From a virus (taxonomy: Duplodnaviria > Heunggongvirae > Uroviricota > Caudoviricetes), in IMG/VR virus record IMGVR_UViG_2609459819_000001, positions 1-42,054 of that record: DNA of 42,054 bases; one strand, given 5' to 3'. Under the pieces are notes generated by a model, which had not been told where the DNA came from, did no database searches, and saw only the letters and a list, made by a program, of their open reading frames with translations. How positions within the stretch are numbered: the stretch's first letter is position 1; every line of letters starts with the position of its first letter. The translations under genes were made by a program, and so were the position numbers. Shown here piece after piece: positions 27,292-42,054 of the stretch.

Positions 27292-27540
27292 TCAGACCGT
27301 TGATTTCATATTATCAGAAGGTGGGGTTACCCGGTAGCCGAGACGGTGAATAAACTGCATAAAACCATTAGGAGTAAAGACCTCTTCATCATCCAGCAAA
27401 GGCCGCATAGAAACCATGCCATTGACGCGATAAATTAGATGCCTGCCCGATGAAGGAAAGCTAAACACCACGCAGCCGTCAGACCTTCTTACAATGTCAT
27501 ACCAGTTGTCATCTGACGTTTGCAAAGCTGAATCACTCAC
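27292..27540 (-). CDS. Hypothetical 82-aa protein, likely co-transcribed with the dinI-like gene
   Basis: GTG start with AGGGAG upstream; no terminator seen between it and dinI-like gene. Confidence 0.3.
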   Translation of the reverse strand: MSDSALQTSDDNWYDIVRRSDGCVVFSFPSSGRHLIYRVNGMVSMRPLLDDEEVFTPNGFMQFIHRLGYRVTPPSDNMKSTV

Positions 27541-30585: not shown

Positions 30586-31275
30586 TCACACCATCCCGTT
30601 CGACTTGTTGCGGTTGTACTTGGCCAGCAGCAGCTGGATCGGCGTCGGCCCTTGCTCGGCAGCTGGTGCGGCAATAGCCCGGCGTACCGGCGGCACTGGC
30701 TTACCCTCGGTGACGCGCCTTTCCCACATGTCCAGCAGATCGCCTGCCTCGCGTGCCAGTTCACCATGCGTTAACTGGCGCTCGGTGCTGCGGTGGCGCA
30801 ATTCTACGCAAATGTGGTACATGACCGGCTGCGACCATGGAAATTGCTCGCTGGAGATGAATTCGAACGAGCGGTTACGCCAGTCCCAGTATTCGGCGAT
30901 CACCTGGTCAACGTTGACGCCCAGCGCGCCGCTGCTCTGCTTGCACCAGGCGACGAACTGGCCCGGCGACGGCAGGAATGGGCGCTCCTGGCGGCGGGCA
31001 ATGCGCATGCCGGCATCGACCTGAGCCATGGTGTGGATCCCGTTCTCCTGAAACGCCAGCAGCCACTGACGGCGGAATTCGTTCAGGTCTTCCTGGGTGC
31101 GGAAGTTCGCCATGCTGGCCGGGAACGCGGCGCGCAGCTCGTTGAACAGCTTGTTGAATACCTGCGCCACCTGCTCGACCGGCGCGCACTCCTGGTACTG
31201 CTCTGGCAGGTTATGGGCCATGCGGCTCATCTGCTCGCGGTCGCGGTTACGCATCTGCTCTGCAAGAGATTTCAT
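30586..31275 (-). CDS. P: Replication protein P (DnaB helicase loader), lambda P family
   Basis: MKSLAEQMRNRDREQM...FPAS..RRQWLLAFQENGI..RPFLPSPGQFVAWC closely parallels lambda P as recalled. Confidence 0.85.
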   Translation of the reverse strand: MKSLAEQMRNRDREQMSRMAHNLPEQYQECAPVEQVAQVFNKLFNELRAAFPASMANFRTQEDLNEFRRQWLLAFQENGIHTMAQVDAGMRIARRQERPFLPSPGQFVAWCKQSSGALGVNVDQVIAEYWDWRNRSFEFISSEQFPWSQPVMYHICVELRHRSTERQLTHGELAREAGDLLDMWERRVTEGKPVPPVRRAIAAPAAEQGPTPIQLLLAKYNRNKSNGMV

Positions 31276-32180
31276 CGGATCACCCCATAGGCCCAGTCAG
31301 TGTTGTTGAAGTCCAGATCTGGCTTGACAGCGCGCTGCTCACCTCCGGCGTTACGCTGCATTGTCAGCTTGTCCCACTGCTTACGCAGGCTTTCGGGACT
31401 CAGGATGTTGGTCTGCCAGAAGTGGTGTTTGCTAGCCCAGTCATACAGCGCGCAGATGTCCTGGTGCGACCGGTTGTCTATCTGGCGCATCAGGCGAACA
31501 GTGTTAGACCAGGAGGTCATGTCCGGGGCTTTGCAGGTTGGGTTAATCAGCTTCACCCTGGAGGAAATCCACTTAGCTGTCTCGAGGTCTTCAGCAGAGC
31601 CCCACTTCGCACCGGATGGTGTGTAGACCGCAGCTTCAGGATGAGTTGATAAAAATTTCTTCAGACGTGCGTCAGAGGATTCGTCAGAATTCTCTGACGA
31701 AGATCTTTTAATACTGTTCTTGTTCTTGTATTGGGTGTCTACCGTTTTCGGGAAGGTTATTCCTGATTTCGGGAAGGATTTTCCCGTTTTCGGGAATTTT
31801 CTTCCCGTTTCCGGTTTGTCTAAAATCCATGCTGAAAGGTCAGTGTTTACACCGACGATTTTCATCATGCCCTGCTTCTGTGAAAAGATGATTTTGCGTT
31901 CTGCGAGAGACTTAAGCGCGTCCGATACATGCGTATCGCTCAGGCCCGTAAGCTCGGCAATAACCGTATTTGTCACGCGGTCCTGTTTCTTGTTCCAGCC
32001 GTAGGTAAGCCAGATCACCGCCTCAAAACATTGCCATTCCCGGCCTGACAGTCTCAGGCGAGGCTTAAGCTGTTGGATCTCGTTAGCGACCTTGGTATAC
32101 CCGTTCGACAGGTCGGCCATACGACCTCCCGGTTGTTCGGTTTTATTTGGGAAATTGATTATTTCAGCGGTGTTTGACAT
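31272..32180 (-). CDS. O: Replication initiator O (lambda O family, N-terminal iteron-binding domain)
   Basis: Start MSNTAEIINFP (lambda O: MTNTAKILNF); contains iteron-encoded FPKTGKSFPKSGITFPKT linker. Confidence 0.8.
   Translation of the reverse strand: MSNTAEIINFPNKTEQPGGRMADLSNGYTKVANEIQQLKPRLRLSGREWQCFEAVIWLTYGWNKKQDRVTNTVIAELTGLSDTHVSDALKSLAERKIIFSQKQGMMKIVGVNTDLSAWILDKPETGRKFPKTGKSFPKSGITFPKTVDTQYKNKNSIKRSSSENSDESSDARLKKFLSTHPEAAVYTPSGAKWGSAEDLETAKWISSRVKLINPTCKAPDMTSWSNTVRLMRQIDNRSHQDICALYDWASKHHFWQTNILSPESLRKQWDKLTMQRNAGGEQRAVKPDLDFNNTDWAYGVIR
31740..31816. repeat. Origin iterons: four direct repeats (core TTTTCGGGAA) at 21-bp spacing, adjacent AT-rich segment
   Basis: Cores at 31745, 31766/7, 31787, 31807; each part of a TTCCCG..CGGGAA inverted repeat; inside the O gene as in lambda ori. 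Confidence 0.6.
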
Positions 32181-32189
32181 ACTGTTCTC

Positions 32190-32257
32190 CGCAATTACGC
32201 CCTGTTTTTGCACCTGAAAGCCGTTGGTGTTCGAGCACCGCGGCTTTCGCCATTTTT
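32190..32257 (+). ncRNA. oop-like antisense small RNA (predicted, about 70 nt)
   Basis: Plus-strand promoter TTGATT(32155-60)-17 nt-CATACT(32178-83) and plus-strand terminator GAAAGCCG..CGGCTTTC + TTTTT (32216-32257); antisense to the O start / cII-position gene 3' end. Confidence 0.35.
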
Positions 32258-32264
32258 GAACCGG

Positions 32265-32804
32265 TCATATAACCCCCAGCATAATCTGCACCATTTCCAT
32301 CAACGGACCGGTTAACCCAGGGTCAACGCGATACATCTCCACGATCCCCTCGCTCAACTCTTTCAGCTTCTGATGACGTGGCGCATCCATTGCGACAGCA
32401 ATCTTCGCTTCGCTGGTTTCCTTCCCCAGCCTTGCCAGACGAGCCATTACGTTGTCTTCTGGTAGCAGACGATTGCGGTATTCAATCGGCAGGACAGCGA
32501 GGATTGCCGGCGTCAGCTGGCGAACGTTTTCGCGGTACCGTTCGCTGTTGAAATGGTTATCCAGAAAGCGGAAAAGCTTCTGACGCTGTCGGCTGAGGTC
32601 ATCAGGGAAAGTGATCTCGTCTCCCCCTTGAGCCTGGTACTCTTCGATGATCAGAGCAGAAACGACATCCTGACCATCTACACCCGCCCACGCACGAACG
32701 GCATCGCGGATCTGGTCATGTTTATCTACCGAGACAGGTTGATTGCGATTTATCATCGCAGCCGTTTGATATCCGCTATTTTGATGAAGTGATAGTGACT
32801 GCAT
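32265..32804 (-). CDS. cII-position regulatory protein (YdaT-like?)
   Basis: 179-aa ORF directly downstream of cro-like gene; YdaT-like assignment by position (Rac ydaS-ydaT arrangement), low certainty. Confidence 0.35.
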   Translation of the reverse strand: MQSLSLHQNSGYQTAAMINRNQPVSVDKHDQIRDAVRAWAGVDGQDVVSALIIEEYQAQGGDEITFPDDLSRQRQKLFRFLDNHFNSERYRENVRQLTPAILAVLPIEYRNRLLPEDNVMARLARLGKETSEAKIAVAMDAPRHQKLKELSEGIVEMYRVDPGLTGPLMEMVQIMLGVI

Positions 32805-32806
32805 GG

Positions 32807-33040
32807 TTATGCCCTCGCTTCCTGAGCCGGTAATCCATCCGTAGGGTTGAGGTACAAATCAGGGCGTAACTCATGTGGAGTTACACCTGTAGCATTGAAA
32901 ATAGGAATGACACGGTTAGCCGGTACGAATCCATTGTCACGGTGACGCCAGTGACTGACCGTCATTGGGGATACATTGAGCTTTTCTGCTAAACGGGTTG
33001 CACCCCCTACGATGCATATTGCTTTATCAAGTGCTTTCAT
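32807..33040 (-). CDS. cro: Cro-like HTH regulator (YdaS/Cro family)
   Basis: 77 aa from internal ATG 33040 (MKALDKAICIVGGATRLAEKLNVSPMTVSHW...); GGAG 6 nt upstream; divergent from the repressor gene. Confidence 0.55.
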   Translation of the reverse strand: MKALDKAICIVGGATRLAEKLNVSPMTVSHWRHRDNGFVPANRVIPIFNATGVTPHELRPDLYLNPTDGLPAQEARA

Positions 33041-33067
33041 ATTTGGCTCCAAGTAATAACGAACCAA

Positions 33068-33096
33068 ATTAAACATTATGTTTATGTTCAAGTCAA
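33068..33096 (-). promoter_or_regulatory. pR-like promoter (TTGACT-17 nt-TTTAAT)
   Basis: -35 at 33096..33091, -10 at 33073..33068 on minus strand; operator palindrome in the spacer. Confidence 0.5.
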
Positions 33097-33111
33097 CATT
33101 ATGAATGTTGA
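33070..33111. promoter_or_regulatory. OR-like operators: palindromes TAAACATTATGTTTA (33070-33084) and TCAACATTATGAATGTTGA (33093-33111)
   Basis: Two perfect palindromes sharing AACATTATG in the 103-bp cro/repressor intergenic region, overlapping the pR -10/-35. Confidence 0.5.
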
Positions 33112-33135
33112 GGCGATAAACTTTTAGTTTAGAAT
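33108..33135 (+). promoter_or_regulatory. pRM-like promoter for the repressor (TTGAGG-16 nt-TAGAAT), near-leaderless transcript
   Basis: -10 ends 8 nt before the repressor ATG (33144); no SD present. Confidence 0.35.
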
Positions 33136-33143
33136 CTTGATAT

Positions 33144-33539
33144 ATGAGAAAAAACACACACCAAACAGATAACCCGCAGGTTCGGCGGTTAAATGAAATC
33201 ATCGAGAAGAAGCGCATATCCAAAGCGGATATAGCGAGAATCTGTGGTGTGAGCGCACAATCAGTCAACAACTGGTTTGTCAGAGGAGCGATAGGAAAAA
33301 GCTCAGCAATAAAACTTGCCGATGCGCTAGGCGTAAGTCTTGAGTGGGTTCTAGGTCAGGACGTGGATGCTAAGAACGGTTTGAGACACGACGAACGGAG
33401 ACTGTTGGAACTCTATAATCAACTCCCAAACGAAGAAGAACAACAGAACATGTTGCGGATCGTATCTCTACGGTTGAAAGAACTCGATGAACTGTACGCC
33501 AAGTACATGGGACGGCGGATTAAGGGCGATGCCGAGTAA
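33144..33539 (+). CDS. Phage repressor, HTH XRE family (cI-like but without peptidase S24 domain)
   Basis: 131-aa ORF divergent from cro; HTH-like region ISKADIARICGVSAQSVNNW; no Ala-Gly / Ser-Lys autocleavage region visible. Confidence 0.6.
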   Translation: MRKNTHQTDNPQVRRLNEIIEKKRISKADIARICGVSAQSVNNWFVRGAIGKSSAIKLADALGVSLEWVLGQDVDAKNGLRHDERRLLELYNQLPNEEEQQNMLRIVSLRLKELDELYAKYMGRRIKGDAE

Positions 33540-33843: not shown

Positions 33844-34098
33844 GTGGGAAGAAAGGAAAAGCTAAAGTCAAAGTTAGACGGCTTACCCAAAAATTTTACT
33901 TGGGATGAGTTCGTTACTCTCATGAACCAGTATGGCTTCAAGCTTTTGAATGCTAAACGAGGTTCTGGTCGTAAATTTTACAACCAACGTGTTGATAGAT
34001 TGGTCATTTTTCATGAGCCTCATCCTGAAAACACCCTCAAAAGGTACGTCTTGGAAGAAGTTAAACAGCTGTTAGATGAGATTGATGATCATGAATAA
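33844..34098 (+). CDS. hicA: HicA-family toxin (YcfA-like mRNA interferase)
   Basis: 84-aa ORF with GF..L...KRGSGRKF...FHEPHP pattern resembling HicA; directly upstream of a HicB-like gene; GTG start. Confidence 0.5.
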   Translation: MGRKEKLKSKLDGLPKNFTWDEFVTLMNQYGFKLLNAKRGSGRKFYNQRVDRLVIFHEPHPENTLKRYVLEEVKQLLDEIDDHE

Positions 34099-34102
34099 CT
34101 TG

Positions 34103-34549
34103 ATGAAATACAAAGGTTACTATGGTAGCTCCAGCATTTCATTTGAAGATGGGGTGATGCATGGAAAACTCGAATGTATAAATGATCTCGTCACTTATGA
34201 GGGTGCAACGGTTGCAGAACTCCGTGCAGCCTTTGAGGAGGCCGTGGACGATTACCTCTCCACTTGTGAAGAGATAGGAAAATCTCCAGATAAGACAATG
34301 AGTGGTTCGTTTAACATCCGGATAGGTGAATCCCTGCATAAAAAAGCATATTTAGCTGCTAAAGCTAAGAATATGACTTTAAACGATTATGTAAAACAGG
34401 CTGTCAGTGAGTCAGTTAATGGGAAAAAAGAGGTTCACTACCACTTTGAAAAACCGAGGGATGTTAGAGAAGTTACTTTCTTCTCATCCCGTAGACGTAC
34501 AGAAGAGACCTATTGGGAAGTTTCAGTAGACAACGGAGTGCCACATTGA
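34103..34549 (+). CDS. hicB: HicB-family antitoxin (HicB fold + C-terminal RHH-like region)
   Basis: MKYKGYYGSSSISFEDGVMHGKLECINDLVTYEGATVAELRAAFEEAVDDYLSTCEEIGKSP...FNIRIGESLHKKA matches the HicB pattern. Confidence 0.65.
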   Translation: MKYKGYYGSSSISFEDGVMHGKLECINDLVTYEGATVAELRAAFEEAVDDYLSTCEEIGKSPDKTMSGSFNIRIGESLHKKAYLAAKAKNMTLNDYVKQAVSESVNGKKEVHYHFEKPRDVREVTFFSSRRRTEETYWEVSVDNGVPH

Positions 34550-34974
34550 TGCTTGATAAAATTCGCTTTAAGGGATTTGATCTCGAGGGTTCTTCCCTTT
34601 TTATCGACGACAGTGATAATTCTGAAGGCGGAAAATATAGCTTAAAATTTTCTGAGCATCACGTTGTTCCTCAAAAAGATGAAGATGGAAATTGGCTCTT
34701 TATTGAAGTTAAGCCATCGATAACTGGTTTCCCTCGCGATAAAAAAGATTTTGATGATGGTGAGGATGTATTGTTCAAGGCAGAGGCTACCTTGACACTA
34801 ACATTTGAGTGTGACCTCGATGAAGAAGTAACTGAGGATTTTTATAATGAAAATGCTTGGTTTTTTGAAAATTATGTATATGTATGTACAAAAACAGTTT
34901 TTGAAAATATGTTCAAAAACACAGTGTTAGATACTATAACGTTACCTTGGTCCCCAACATCATCTAGAAAATAA
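34549..34974 (+). CDS. Acidic hypothetical protein (141 aa) co-oriented with hicAB
   Basis: ATG overlaps hicB stop (TGATG); about 30 Asp/Glu vs about 14 Lys/Arg; AT-rich DNA; followed by terminator. Confidence 0.4.
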   Translation: MLDKIRFKGFDLEGSSLFIDDSDNSEGGKYSLKFSEHHVVPQKDEDGNWLFIEVKPSITGFPRDKKDFDDGEDVLFKAEATLTLTFECDLDEEVTEDFYNENAWFFENYVYVCTKTVFENMFKNTVLDTITLPWSPTSSRK

Positions 34975-35205: not shown

Positions 35206-35317
35206 ATCCCACCCTCATCGATTTTTTTATAACCACAAAATAGACCACAAAACATACTACTCGTGCCAACGAGCGCAACCAACTAAACTTTTTGTTTATA
35301 TAAAAATGCTCATTATG

Positions 35318-35346
35318 TTGACACGCAAATAAACATTGTGTTTAAT
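35318..35346 (+). promoter_or_regulatory. pL-like early promoter (TTGACA-17 nt-TTTAAT) with embedded operator TAAACATTGTGTTTA
   Basis: Near-identical architecture to pR; operator 35330-35344 in spacer/-10; second partial site CATTATGTTGA overlaps the -35. Confidence 0.5.
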
Positions 35347-40463: not shown

Positions 40464-40661
40464 ATGGATGATATTTTGGTAACGTCAGACCTGACCAGTC
40501 GCTACAAAATTTCACGCAAAACCCTTTGGTCATGGCAAAGTGCAGACACAATGCCTCGGGGCTTCGTATGCCCGTTCCCACCCCCTGACTGGCCCGGCAA
40601 CCCTAACCGCTGGCGCTCTGAGTCAATCAAAGAGTGGGAGGATAAAAAGAAGATAAATTAA
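40464..40661 (+). CDS. xis: Excisionase / AlpA-family DNA-binding protein
   Basis: 65 aa from ATG 40464 (GGAGAG upstream); [19 protein letters not shown] pattern; 4-nt convergent overlap with integrase stop. Confidence 0.45.
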
Positions 40662-41851
40662 CTGAAGGGCTCTCCGATGATCTCTTCAAGATGGCTCTGC
40701 CAAACGCGGAGCCAGTGTTTCTGATCATCGATATAGTCATGAAGGTTGTAATGCGCCATAACCCCCACCATCTGATGCCCGAGCAGCTTTTCAATTACGT
40801 GCGGCGGGCAACCTAACTCAGAGAGATTTGTGGCTATCGTCCGCCTCATATCATGAAGCGACCACTCTGCCATACCTGTTCCATTCCAAATAGAACGGGC
40901 GTAATTGGATGCCACAGGTGAATGAACGGGCGAATCTTTGATCCCGCCATCAATTTTACGTTGTGAAGTCACCAGGTGATTGGTGTTTATTTTCTTGAGG
41001 TGATTTCTGACCAGGTTAACGGCGGCGTCTGAGAGTCCCCTTCTAATATGTACCCGAGTTTTATAACTGCCCGCAGGCACGACCCACTCATTATCATCCA
41101 ATCGAAACCATGATCTCTCACTAAGTCGAATCTCAGCCGTACGGCATCCGGTAAGCATAATAAATTTCACCAGGAAAACGGACTCTATCGACATATGGCT
41201 TTTCAACCACTGATAGATTTTGCGCAGATCGTCATCGTCCATCCTGCGAGTTCTCTTTTTAGGCTTTTGCCCGACATCAGATGGCAGTAATCCCTCGAGT
41301 GGGTTTGAGGCGATCACACTTCTGTTAACGCAGAACCTAAACGCCCGTTTGCACAGCGAAAGCATGTAATGAGCCATCACCCTGCTTTCTATAGAATCGA
41401 AGACGTTGATCCAGTGCATTTTCGCTGTGTTATCGACTTTGACATTCTTCATCGGTTCGGCGATATGTTTCTCAAACACCTGGCGATAGTAATCGACTTT
41501 AACTAGCCCGTTAGCGATACAGTGCCTTTCAATCCAGTAATTGAACGCTTCGGCAACGGACATCGCTTCCTGTCGGGTCTGCTTATCCAGCTTCACCTGC
41601 TCTCGCGGATCCAGTCCCTCAGTTAACCAGTTTCTGAATTGTTGGCGACGCTCTCTTGCCTGGGTGATACTCATTGCAGGATAATCACCAACATTGAGTT
41701 TTACCGCTTTACCGGCCCAGCGATACCGATAGAAAAATGATATTTTTCCGGCCTGGCTGATTCTGGCGTTGAGCCCGTGCGAATCAGAAATAATCTCGAT
41801 ATCATCTCTTTTCTTGCCGAGCGCCTTCCTGAGCTTTGTGTCGGTGATCAT
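40658..41851 (-). CDS. int: Tyrosine integrase (P4-like, N-terminal arm-binding domain)
   Basis: C-terminal [28 protein letters not shown]...MAHY catalytic region; N-terminal [14 protein letters not shown]...[23 protein letters not shown]; start taken at internal ATG 41851. Confidence 0.8.
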
Positions 41852-41856
41852 TGAAT

Positions 41857-41898
41857 GGGTACACATTTTTGTTTTTGGGTACACAAAAGTGTACACAA
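41857..41898. repeat. Three direct repeats G(G/T)GTACACA immediately upstream of integrase start
   Basis: Copies at 41857-41865, 41878-41886, 41889-41897 (GTGTACAC is palindromic). Confidence 0.35.
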
Positions 41899-42054
41899 AG
41901 TTGCCCACTCAAAGCTACACGCAATGTAACACTAGTTCGCAGAGTGTTATGATTTACATCCTTGAAAGCCTGCTGGATAAGGGTTTAGCGTAACAGAACG
42001 TTTTTACGCGGAATTGTTCGTAATATGCCAAATGACAATTTAAGAAAGTGTTCT

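Follow-up and report, generated by a model that had tools for sequence, protein, structure and literature searches.

Many lambdoid phages possess YdaS as their equivalent of Cro and YdaT as that of CII (PMC5917428, PMC8630535, PMC9986795, PMC11879457), and the YdaS-YdaT pairs of the prophages Rac (E. coli K-12) and CP-933P (E. coli O157:H7) do not form a toxin-antitoxin (TA) pair (PMC8630535, PMC9986795, PMC11879457, PMC5917428). At the ydaS/ydaT junction, YdaT of both prophages binds the sequence TTGATT/ATGATT-N6-AATCAA, and by activating a reverse promoter it raises expression of the repressor operon (PMC8630535, PMC9986795, PMC11879457). The box footprinted in Rac reads ATGATTN6AATCAA (PMC11879457). 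The solved CP-933P protein (PDB 8bt1) is a tetrameric POU-like HTH protein, which binds TTGATT-N6-AATCAA and activates PRE933P (PMC9986795, PMC8630535); in the published structures its tetramer geometry differs from that of lambda CII (PMC9986795).

We analyzed the corresponding locus in a stretch of 42,054 nucleotides of viral DNA, which as a whole is called the window in the following. The window represents an apparently complete prophage with intact ORFs for integrase, RecET, Q, lysis, terminase, head and tail functions. The Cro-like gene, a member of the YdaS family, is located on the minus strand (33040..32807; ATG at 33040, TAA at 32809-32807), encodes 77 amino acids and is preceded by the Shine-Dalgarno sequence GGAG (33047-33050). 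Its stop codon is separated by a gap of only 2 nt from the start of the cII gene, which belongs to the YdaT family, encodes 179 amino acids (minus strand, 32804..32265; ATG at 32804, TGA at 32267-32265) and possesses the Shine-Dalgarno sequence GAGGG (32812-32816). A preliminary description of this DNA had reported a Cro-like HTH gene followed by a gene for a 179-aa protein, and both ORFs were indeed found on the minus strand exactly where it had placed them. Pfam, PHROGs and the numbers of homologues identified both as real genes as opposed to chance ORFs; 751 protein clusters (formed at 90% identity) matched at E<=1e-5, and nine complete E. coli genomes contain the same locus with more than 99% identity. 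The Cro-like gene is the first gene of a PR-type operon and lies beside the operators, while O and P are situated directly downstream of the pair on the same strand. The gene of the 179-aa protein is thus, as had been proposed, in the cII position, between the cro-like gene and the phi80-type O gene (followed by P) and opposite a divergent HTH repressor gene. We conclude that the two genes very probably encode ordinary regulators of lysis and lysogeny, one Cro-like and one CII-like, in a phi80-related lambdoid E. coli prophage. The finding is real and already explained, the locus being an ordinary member of a known system.

This conclusion is based on the relationships of both proteins. The Cro-like protein matched the Pfam family YdaS_toxin (PF15943; 7.6e-16, 58.1 bits at a cut-off of 30) and more weakly P22_Cro and Phage_CI_repr, furthermore phrog_35 'transcriptional repressor' (1.9e-24) and the 'Cro protein' 3bd1 of the PDB (3.7e-6). 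For the 179-aa protein, matches to Pfam YdaT_toxin (PF06254; 1.1e-24, 87.1 bits at a cut-off of 21) and, over residues 17-178, to phrog_163 'CII-like transcriptional activator' (8.3e-57) were obtained. The profile search suggested in the preliminary description hence gave matches above the cut-off for both proteins and confirmed that they belong to the same Pfam families as the Rac proteins, to which they are 37% (YdaS) and 34% (YdaT) identical. NCBIfam revealed nothing above its cut-off for either of them. Solved YdaT structures were detected by the 179-aa protein in a single-sequence search (PDB 8bt1, 5.7e-6; 3c4r, 9.6e-5) as well as in a profile search (8bt1, 1.2e-26; 3c4r, 7.2e-26). R79, the arginine of the recognition helix, is nearly invariant across 27 diverse family members; the DNA-contacting arginine of recognition helix alpha-3 is R57 in Rac and R60 in CP-933P. 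With YdaT of CP-933P, which is about 30% identical and has 141 aa versus 179 aa, the protein shares the recognition-helix motif QK(I/L)FR(W/F)LD. An AlphaFold2 model calculated from a 26-sequence alignment was all-alpha with a mean pLDDT of only 47. Since this value was too poor for a fold search, only the secondary structure was taken from the model, namely helices at residues 28-40, 47-58, 71-84, 88-104, 107-113 and 119-138 plus two extra C-terminal ones. Compared to YdaT, the phi80-CII subfamily contains approximately 25 extra N-terminal and 40 extra C-terminal residues, and both extensions are missing in the 140-aa YdaT protein of Rac.

Clear homology to the CII family, which according to the preliminary description would speak against a TA-like module, exists to the phi80 type: CII of phi80 (180 aa) is 61% identical to the 179-aa protein over the full length (E 8e-82). 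Of the functions envisaged for this protein, that of a lysogeny regulator is therefore the best-supported one, as far as function can be transferred from Rac and CP-933P (31-34% identical) and from the genetic name of the phi80 gene. In contrast, the 179-aa protein shows no homology to lambda CII. It did not match Pfam Phage_CII (PF05269) at E<=0.1, and BLASTP against lambda CII gave just a 9-residue match (E 0.09).

Phage phi80 exhibits the same gene order and orientation, comprising a cI-like gene, gene 30 (Cro-like), cII, M3 RNA, gene 15 (O) and gene 14 (P). The two phages differ in immunity specificity: the window Cro is only 33% identical to the product of gene 30, and phi80 CI has 236 aa, whereas the window repressor has 131 aa and consists of an HTH only. 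In phage mEp237, the 'CII protein' (AFM76196.1) is approximately 96% identical to the 179-aa protein. DNA identity to mEp237 (96.6%) covers cII, the intergenic region and the 5' end of O (window positions 32100-32891) and takes in approximately the last 85 bp of cro, while in the remainder of cro and in the repressor gene the DNA of the two is unrelated. Thus, a mosaic junction lies inside cro and the immunity type of mEp237 differs from that of the window.

The replication genes O (minus strand, 32180..31272) and P (minus strand, 31275..30586, downstream in the same operon) are of the phi80 type. O matched Pfam Phage_rep_O (6.3e-25) and PHROG 277 and harbors iteron-like repeats at approximately 31743-31812, and P matched Phage_lambda_P (4.7e-50) and PHROG 109. 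With phi80 gene 15, O shares 97.8% identity at its 5' end, and both products start with MSNTAEII. Between cII and O, a gene for a small antisense RNA similar to oop/M3 was identified on the plus strand (32155..32258). Its promoter (TTGATT at 32155-32160, a spacer of 17 nt and CATACT at 32178-32183, with a start near 32191) lies in a block identical to that of the phi80 M3 RNA, which is termed 'homolog of lambda oop RNA' in the phi80 record; the transcribed part of M3 has diverged. The terminator is a hairpin (32216-32248) with a T run to approximately 32258, and the RNA fold has -27.1 kcal/mol (z -4.45). A scan of the whole window with Rfam did not disclose any family, so this RNA was assigned from the annotation of phi80, the identity of the promoter and the fold of the terminator. 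Another plus-strand site (32256-32285, TTGAAC-18-CATAAT) had been considered as the oop promoter and was displaced by the phi80-identical sequence.

These relationships also bear on the question of whether the module could belong to a cryptic prophage that is decaying like Rac, and could have become inert with the loss of its regulatory function. Rac and CP-933P, the best-studied YdaS-YdaT loci, are both defective prophages. However, the window prophage is apparently complete with intact ORFs from integrase to the tail genes, the two regulatory genes themselves are intact and have good ribosome-binding sites, and their coding sequences and regulatory motifs are evidently constrained. Moreover, a nearly identical cII gene is carried by mEp237, a plaque-forming phage, and a homologue by phi80. 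Decay is for these reasons a very unlikely explanation of the locus. Rac differs from the window not only in being defective; it contains the same Pfam families in the order divergent repressor RacR, cro-like gene, cII-like gene and replication genes, but the latter (ydaU, ydaV) are of another type, and RacR resembles the window repressor in the HTH only. CP-933P is likewise cryptic and carries other TA cargo than the window.

A TA-like module is favoured by database names and by one phenotype. Pfam designates the two families YdaS_toxin and YdaT_toxin, RefSeq uses the label 'toxin YdaT domain-containing protein', and over-expressed YdaT of Rac is lethal (PMC11879457, PMC5700377). In such a module, which would serve addiction or defence, growth would be inhibited by YdaT as the toxin, and the part of antitoxin or repressor would fall to the YdaS-type HTH protein or to the divergent repressor. 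This reading has largely been refuted already, and for the window it is extremely improbable. The toxin names derive from a prediction of 2007 that was not confirmed by experiments (PMC5917428, PMC8630535), and YdaT of CP-933P did not show toxicity (PMC8630535). The preliminary description had opposed Rac ydaS-ydaT to lambda cro-cII, which is a false choice because YdaS corresponds to Cro and YdaT to CII (PMC5917428, PMC8630535, PMC9986795, PMC11879457). At 110 loci with this cII type, the upstream partners fell into 15 clusters at 60% identity and into seven clusters without BLAST links to each other (90, 8, 5, 2, 2, 1 and 1 loci). As one and the same cII type is found behind seven Cro-type clusters without mutual BLAST links, there is no cognate TA pairing. 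Nor do the two genes form an autonomous operon; they are the first genes of the PR operon, which continues directly into O and P. With this unconserved partner and this position, the TA-like module put forward earlier fails. In addition, neither the Cro-like nor the 179-aa protein was matched by the PADLOC models, and its homology to solved structures suggests that the latter is a DNA-binding HTH regulator. The 179-aa protein may still inhibit growth under forced over-expression, which is a side effect of a regulator and no evidence for a TA function. Lambda CII likewise inhibits growth when its over-expression is forced.

Having assigned the pair as Cro and CII, we inspected the region upstream of it. 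Two divergent promoters can be read from the sequence between 33068 and 33135. The PR-like promoter on the minus strand comprises TTGACT (33096-33091) and TTTAAT (33073-33068) at a distance of 17 nt, the PRM-like promoter on the plus strand TTGAGG (33108-33113) and TAGAAT (33130-33135) at a distance of 16 nt. The operator palindromes AAACATTATGTTT (33071-33083) and CAACATTATGAATGTTG (33094-33110) are located within this divergent promoter region. The repressor mRNA is probably leaderless, because the -10 region of PRM ends 8 nt before the ATG of the repressor gene; leaderless repressor mRNAs have been demonstrated for lambda cI and CP-933P paaR2 (PMC8630535). The divergent CI-type prophage repressor (plus strand, 33144..33539, 131 aa) contains an HTH (Pfam HTH_3, 2.8e-8; Phage_CI_repr, 1.7e-5; PHROG 8, 2.7e-19) and no S24 peptidase domain, and it shows weak similarity to DicA and RstR. 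It shares with PaaR2 of CP-933P that it is short, lacks a peptidase, is probably translated from a leaderless mRNA and precedes a TA module, paaA2-parE2 in CP-933P and hicAB in the window. Situated beyond the peptidase-less repressor, hicAB occupies the rexAB position and parallels paaR2-paaA2-parE2. This arrangement may be of interest for studies of TA cargo under immunity-region control.

The predicted binding site of the 179-aa protein lies within its own gene. The inverted repeat ATGATAAATCGCAATCAA (32756..32739), in which ATGATA and AATCAA flank AATCGC on the gene strand, covers codons 17-22 of cII and deviates by one mismatch from the footprinted Rac box. It is the sole site within one mismatch in the 42-kb window, for which 0.27 sites were expected. 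In phi80, the box (ATGATAAACCGCGCTCAA) is likewise found at codons 17-22. Rac contains a near-identical box (ATGATTCATGAAAATCAA) at the ydaS/ydaT junction, which in contrast overlaps the start codon. As the Rac ATG lies inside the box, M17 was considered as the true cII start codon. It was rejected because ATG 32804 is preceded by the Shine-Dalgarno sequence GAGGG and because the frame is indel-free and the first codons (ATGCA..CACTT) are present in all relatives.

The box is conserved at the level of DNA. In 94 unique homologous genes, TGATA and TCA of the box are invariant despite variation of the amino acids at positions 17 and 21, and the half-sites are equally conserved at synonymous and non-synonymous positions. 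Isoleucine 18 is encoded by ATA in all but one of these genes (93/94), compared to 15% ATA at other isoleucine codons. Codons 9 and 21 have a final T without exception (94/94). In most relatives the right half-site reads GCTCAA, and the palindrome is therefore imperfect. Upstream in the gene, the plus strand contains TATTTT (32777..32782), a candidate -10 hexamer of a PRE-like promoter that would be directed antisense through cro toward the repressor. A TAnnnT hexamer is present there in each of 68 unique sequences (68/68), while neighbouring synonymous sites vary. Box and hexamer are conserved at the DNA level; some of the constraint may come from the peptide, since the conserved nucleotides reside in coding sequence.

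Hexamer and box are 20 nt apart, which places the box centre near -41.5. The same distance of 20-21 nt was found in Rac, whose antisense hexamer is TATGAT (20 nt), in a CP-933P-like phage, in a Klebsiella phage and in a Stenotrophomonas phage, i.e., in five divergent lineages in all; the antisense hexamer of phi80 is TATTGT. This conserved spacing suggests a PRE-like promoter and is the sole mildly new point of the analysis. The promoters given in the literature sit elsewhere, as PracR4 is located about 190 bp from the Rac box and the predicted PRE933P upstream of the CP-933P box. A generic sigma-70 scan did not reveal a plus-strand promoter near the box, which is expected for an activator-dependent promoter but lends the proposed one no independent support.

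Relaxed box searches gave numbers close to chance (23 found, 19.7 expected). One other good palindrome exists at 27300-27317; a TAnnnT motif at the right spacing is present on neither side of it. No convincing CII-type sites were detected near int or Q. The region near int contains a three-mismatch match to the box (41869-41886) among GGGTACACA repeats. The direct repeat TTGC-N6-TTGC, which is the site of lambda CII, occurs four times in the window, about the number expected by chance, and since no copy lies between 30812 and 42054, there is none at the cro/cII junction.

The box could also be an operator or roadblock instead of an activator site, if the main role of this YdaT-family regulator were autorepression, repression of the PR operon or re-programming of host genes, as by Rac YdaT at rcsA. 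YdaT is often termed a 'repressor' in the literature (PMC9986795), the Rac protein also binds to the racR-ydaS intergenic region and to the host rcsA promoter (PMC11879457), and a tetramer bound within the cII coding sequence could block transcription from PR. Yet an antisense TAnnnT at a fixed distance of 20-21 nt on the repressor side in five lineages is what an activator-dependent promoter, unlike a plain operator, would lead one to expect. Reporter data for Rac and CP-933P showed activation of leftward transcription (PMC8630535, PMC11879457), and the phi80 gene was named cII. We therefore regard such a different main role as unlikely.

Taking the pair as Cro and CII, the switch may work as follows. 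Upon infection or induction, minus-strand transcription of cro, cII, O and P would start from the PR-like promoter. The Cro protein of the YdaS type (77 aa) would bind to the operator palindromes (33071-33110) and turn off the repressor promoter. The 179-aa CII protein, which by homology is expected to consist of a POU-like HTH domain and a tetramerizing helix, would bind to the inverted repeat ATGATA-N6-AATCAA in its own 5' coding region (32739-32756) and switch on a weak leftward promoter on the plus strand, with the candidate -10 region at 32777-32782 and a start near 32789. The CII-dependent transcript would cross cro in antisense direction and reach the repressor gene (33144-33539) and, beyond it, hicAB, and in this way repression and lysogeny would be established. 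The oop/M3-like antisense RNA (~32191-32258) would be made just downstream of cII, as in phi80. DNA binding, tetramerization, promoter activation and the role in lysogeny are thereby assumed to be as in the homologues.

The proposed switch shows several parallels to lambda. There, too, the gene that follows cro encodes a tetrameric HTH activator, CII, which has its site within the 5' end of this gene and is toxic when over-expressed. PRE is a weak leftward promoter running antisense through cro into cI, and the small antisense RNA gene oop lies between cII and O. The binding sites are different, an inverted repeat in the window and a direct repeat in lambda. Unlike for lambda CII, we know of no link to CIII or FtsH for CII proteins of the YdaT/phi80 type.

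Readers and annotation pipelines are still misled toward a TA pair by the names 'toxin YdaS' and 'toxin YdaT' in the databases, while what is actually present is the Cro/CII switch of phi80-like phages. The locus studied here illustrates this correction well, given the close homology between the 179-aa protein and phi80 CII. A testable prediction is a CII-dependent repressor-establishment promoter within the 5' end of cII, at a distance of 20 nt from the box. Tentatively, and with a chance that we rate slightly below even, this may be extended to the whole YdaT/phi80-CII family. The establishment promoter would then adjoin the box in a class-II-type arrangement (18-bp box, 20-21 bp, antisense TAnnnT -10, centre near -41.5), and in the phi80 type it would lie inside the N-terminal cII extension of approximately 25 codons, which would be constrained mainly at the DNA level. 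If this is true, the YdaT-activated promoter of Rac would move from the computer-predicted PracR4, about 190 bp away, and the family would gain a unified PRE architecture converging on that of lambda.

The two genes are arranged in tandem on the minus strand within 32265-33040. The first, a YdaS-type gene designated cro here, encodes an HTH protein of 77 aa (ATG at 33040, stop at 32809-32807) and is preceded by a GGAG ribosome-binding site. The second, designated cII, encodes 179 aa (ATG at 32804, stop at 32267-32265), has a GAGGG site 7 nt upstream and starts two bases past the cro stop. Gene coordinates and neighbours agree with the preliminary description, in which a Cro-like HTH was placed ahead of a 179-aa protein occupying the cII position; that description was accurate to the base. 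Profile searches confirmed that the genes belong to the YdaS and YdaT families. The 77-aa protein matched Pfam YdaS_toxin (7.6e-16, above the cut-off), PHROG 35 ('transcriptional repressor') and the solved structure 3bd1 ('Cro protein', 3.7e-6). With the 179-aa protein, Pfam YdaT_toxin (1.1e-24) and PHROG 163 ('CII-like transcriptional activator', 8.3e-57) were obtained. The solved YdaT structures 8bt1 and 3c4r were hit by the single sequence with 5.7e-6 and 9.6e-5, respectively, and by the family profile with 1e-26. The protein is 34% identical to Rac YdaT, and direct sequence comparison disclosed no similarity to lambda CII. The decisive comparison was that with the phi80 cII product (180 aa), which revealed 61% identity over the full length (E 8e-82). 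Thus, the likening of the pair to Rac ydaS-ydaT holds for the families, but not in its rejection of cro-cII. The mEp237 gene annotated 'CII protein' is 96.6% identical to the cII gene of the window, and the whole locus is present with at least 99% identity in nine complete E. coli genomes. The cII family is small and mainly enterobacterial: it comprises 751 clusters when grouped at 90% identity, and in a set of 1.8 billion proteins it has 110 representatives at the 50% level.

The gene order cro, cII, small antisense RNA, O, P of phi80 is exactly matched by the window. In the 1988 record of phi80 (X13065.1, 3750-4148) cII was annotated with 132 aa from an internal start, in the 2012 genome record with 180 aa (543 nt). 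We favour the long form because its ATG, ribosome-binding site and frame are conserved in more than 90 relatives. The phi80 RNA is annotated as 'M3 RNA, homolog of lambda oop RNA'. Its counterpart lies on the plus strand at 32155-32258 between cII and O, where the M3 promoter block is found base for base (TTGATT at 32155-32160, CATACT at 32178-32183). The transcribed part has diverged from phi80, while a strong terminator hairpin with a T run was retained (32216-32258; -27.1 kcal/mol, z -4.45). The -10 sequence CATACT overlaps the start codon of O. The predicted RNA would be complementary to the O leader and its ribosome-binding site and not to the coding sequence of cII.

RefSeq labels the cII gene 'toxin YdaT domain-containing protein', and it was from such database names that the framing of the pair as a toxin-antitoxin module descended. 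Published work argues against it. [quoted passage not shown] Jurenas et al. demonstrated that YdaS and YdaT of CP-933P behave like Cro and CII and do not form a TA module, YdaT being the activator of a leftward PRE-type promoter (PMC8630535). Over-expression of Rac YdaT is toxic via host targets, e.g., rcsA (Wons et al., PMC11879457). Neither protein of the window matched any PADLOC model. A cognate toxin and antitoxin would be expected to stay together, but the direct upstream neighbours of this cII type in 110 loci fell into seven clusters without BLAST links between them (90 YdaS-like, 8, 5 lambda-Cro-like, 2, 2, 1 and 1; fifteen clusters at 60% identity). This diversity of partners, too, argues against the toxin-antitoxin framing. 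The replication genes downstream of cII vary, too. Moreover, the similarity to mEp237 extends from O through cII and, after reaching some 85 bp into the 3' end of cro, breaks at about 32891, indicating a recombination boundary of the immunity module within cro, so that the promoter proposed below travels with cII. The exchange of partners on both sides and this break indicate that cII and its promoter region are a mosaic module, which recombines freely with different immunity types.

YdaT is a tetramer whose POU-like HTH domains are joined via a long C-terminal helix, and its footprint at the ydaS/ydaT junction is TTGATT-N6-AATCAA (Prolic-Kalinsek et al., PMC9986795). Wons et al. reported the footprint ATGATTCATGAAAATCAA over the start codon of Rac ydaT, a box on which the activation of leftward transcription into racR, up to 29-fold, depends (PMC11879457); we confirmed this sequence in K-12. 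Within cII of the window, a candidate box ATGATAAATCGCAATCAA, which differs from that of Rac by one half-site base, covers codons 17-22 (32756..32739, minus strand), at most about 50 nt from the cro/cII junction. It is the only site within one mismatch in 42 kb (0.27 expected). To judge its conservation, the 110 related loci, taken from genomes and viral contigs, were reduced to 94 unique genes and, for the first 81 nt, to 68 unique sequences. The box always occupied nucleotides 49-66 of the gene, within an otherwise highly variable N-terminal region. The half-site cores TGATA and TCA were invariant or almost so, despite changes of the encoded residues: codon 17 occurred as ATG, GTG, TTG or CTG, and codon 21 as GCT, AAT, ACT, TCT or GAT, always with a final T. 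Ile18 was encoded by ATA in 93 of the 94 genes, compared with 15% ATA at their other Ile codons. Such conservation would be better explained by selection at the DNA level than by selection on the peptide alone. A second good box-like palindrome, TTGATTTCATATTATCAG, is located at 27300-27317, where a small gene of the nin region ends, immediately ahead of a DUF1367 gene. One match of this kind is expected by chance, and neither flank has a TAnnnT hexamer at the appropriate distance.

Towards cro and the repressor gene, 20 nt from the box in cII, we identified the candidate -10 hexamer TATTTT (32777-32782, plus strand, antisense to cII). A TAnnnT hexamer was present at this distance in all 68 unique sequences. 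Codon 9, which contributes one hexamer base, ended with T in 94 of 94 genes, while the same codon families did so elsewhere in these genes in 36%. A transcription start 7 nt past the hexamer would place the box centre at about -41.5, a class II activator geometry resembling that of lambda CII at PRE. Corresponding hexamers were found in Rac (L002, 2652-2695, TATGAT), the CP-933P-like phage vB_EcoS-640R1 (L119, 865-908, TATGAT) and Stenotrophomonas phage BUCT708 (L121, 722-765, TAAGCT), each 20 nt from the box, as well as in Klebsiella phage Kp4882-1 (L120, about 764-808, TATCAT), 21 nt from it. This suggests that a YdaT-activated promoter adjoins the box in the window and in all four other lineages. 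Two different promoters have been proposed, namely PracR4 of Rac, predicted by BProm about 190 bp from the box (PMC11879457), and the likewise predicted PRE933P of CP-933P (PMC8630535). As both are predictions, neither being mapped as an activated start site in the portions of the published accounts available to us, they do not contradict a promoter adjacent to the box. Its detailed geometry is plausible, at close to even chances.

The phi80-type subfamily differs from the YdaT proteins characterised so far in an N-terminal extension of roughly 25 residues, which contains box and hexamer, and in a conserved stretch of about 40 additional residues at the C-terminus (...SEGIVEM(F/Y)RVDP.LT.PLM.MV..MLG..), in which AlphaFold2 modelled two extra helices with low confidence (pLDDT 47). 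The recognition helix QKLFRFLD is close to QKIFRWLD of CP-933P YdaT, and R57 of Rac YdaT, an Arg needed for binding (PMC11879457), is conserved as R79.

The window apparently represents a complete lambdoid prophage. Its left part harbors tail, head, terminase, lysis and Q genes, followed on the minus strand by the nin region, P (31275..30586), O (32180..31272, directly downstream of cII), cII and cro. Within O, TTTCGGGAA-type iterons at about 31743-31812 are a probable replication origin. The 3' end of cro contains a hairpin with a 10-bp stem (GGTGTAACTC-CACAT-GAGTTACGCC, minus strand, 32863-32887), which precedes a weak T run. This part of cro is common to mEp237 and several other Cro variants ending ...TPHELRPDLYPNPTDGLP, and the hairpin may be mere codon chance or may act as a tR1-like attenuator in front of cII. 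Genes for the repressor, HicA, HicB, RecE and RecT lie on the plus strand. The integrase ORF is listed at 40658-41908 with a GTG start at 41908; its 5' end is overlapped by three GGGTACACA / GTGTACACA repeats (41857-41900), possibly sites of the arm type or of regulation.

Divergently from cro, a 131-aa HTH repressor is encoded at 33144-33539. The spacer of 103 bp holds two palindromic operators (AAACATTATGTTT and CAACATTATGAATGTTG), a PR-like promoter (TTGACT-17-TTTAAT, minus strand) and the PRM-like promoter of the repressor gene (TTGAGG-16-TAGAAT, 33108-33135). Since 8 nt separate the -10 region of the latter from the repressor ATG, which lacks a Shine-Dalgarno sequence, the repressor mRNA is probably leaderless. 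A Pfam search disclosed the HTH and no S24 autocleavage domain. Judged by this domain content, RecA-stimulated self-cleavage could not drive induction, which may need an antirepressor or some other way; a similar question was discussed for PaaR2 (PMC8630535). A PL-like promoter (about 35311-35346, plus strand; TTGACA-17-TTTAAT near 35318-35346), flanked by the OR-operator-like sequences CATTATGTT and AAACATTGTGTTT, heads the operon of ydaE-like, RecE and RecT genes. Between the repressor gene and this promoter, HicA toxin (33844-34098; Pfam 1.2e-7) and HicB antitoxin (34076-34549; 1.5e-18) are encoded on the plus strand, followed by a 153-aa ORF (34513-34974, plus strand) without match in the family search. 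The pair hicAB, which occupies the position of rexAB in lambda and of paaA2-parE2 in CP-933P, is a real TA module of this immunity region, but not the pair singled out in the preliminary description.

Taken together, these elements form a coherent lambda-type immunity region, and the two genes belong to a system already understood, as cro and cII of a phi80-like prophage. Most probably, the repressor operon is served by a leftward establishment promoter that the 179-aa protein activates in the manner of CII, a role we consider very likely for this protein.
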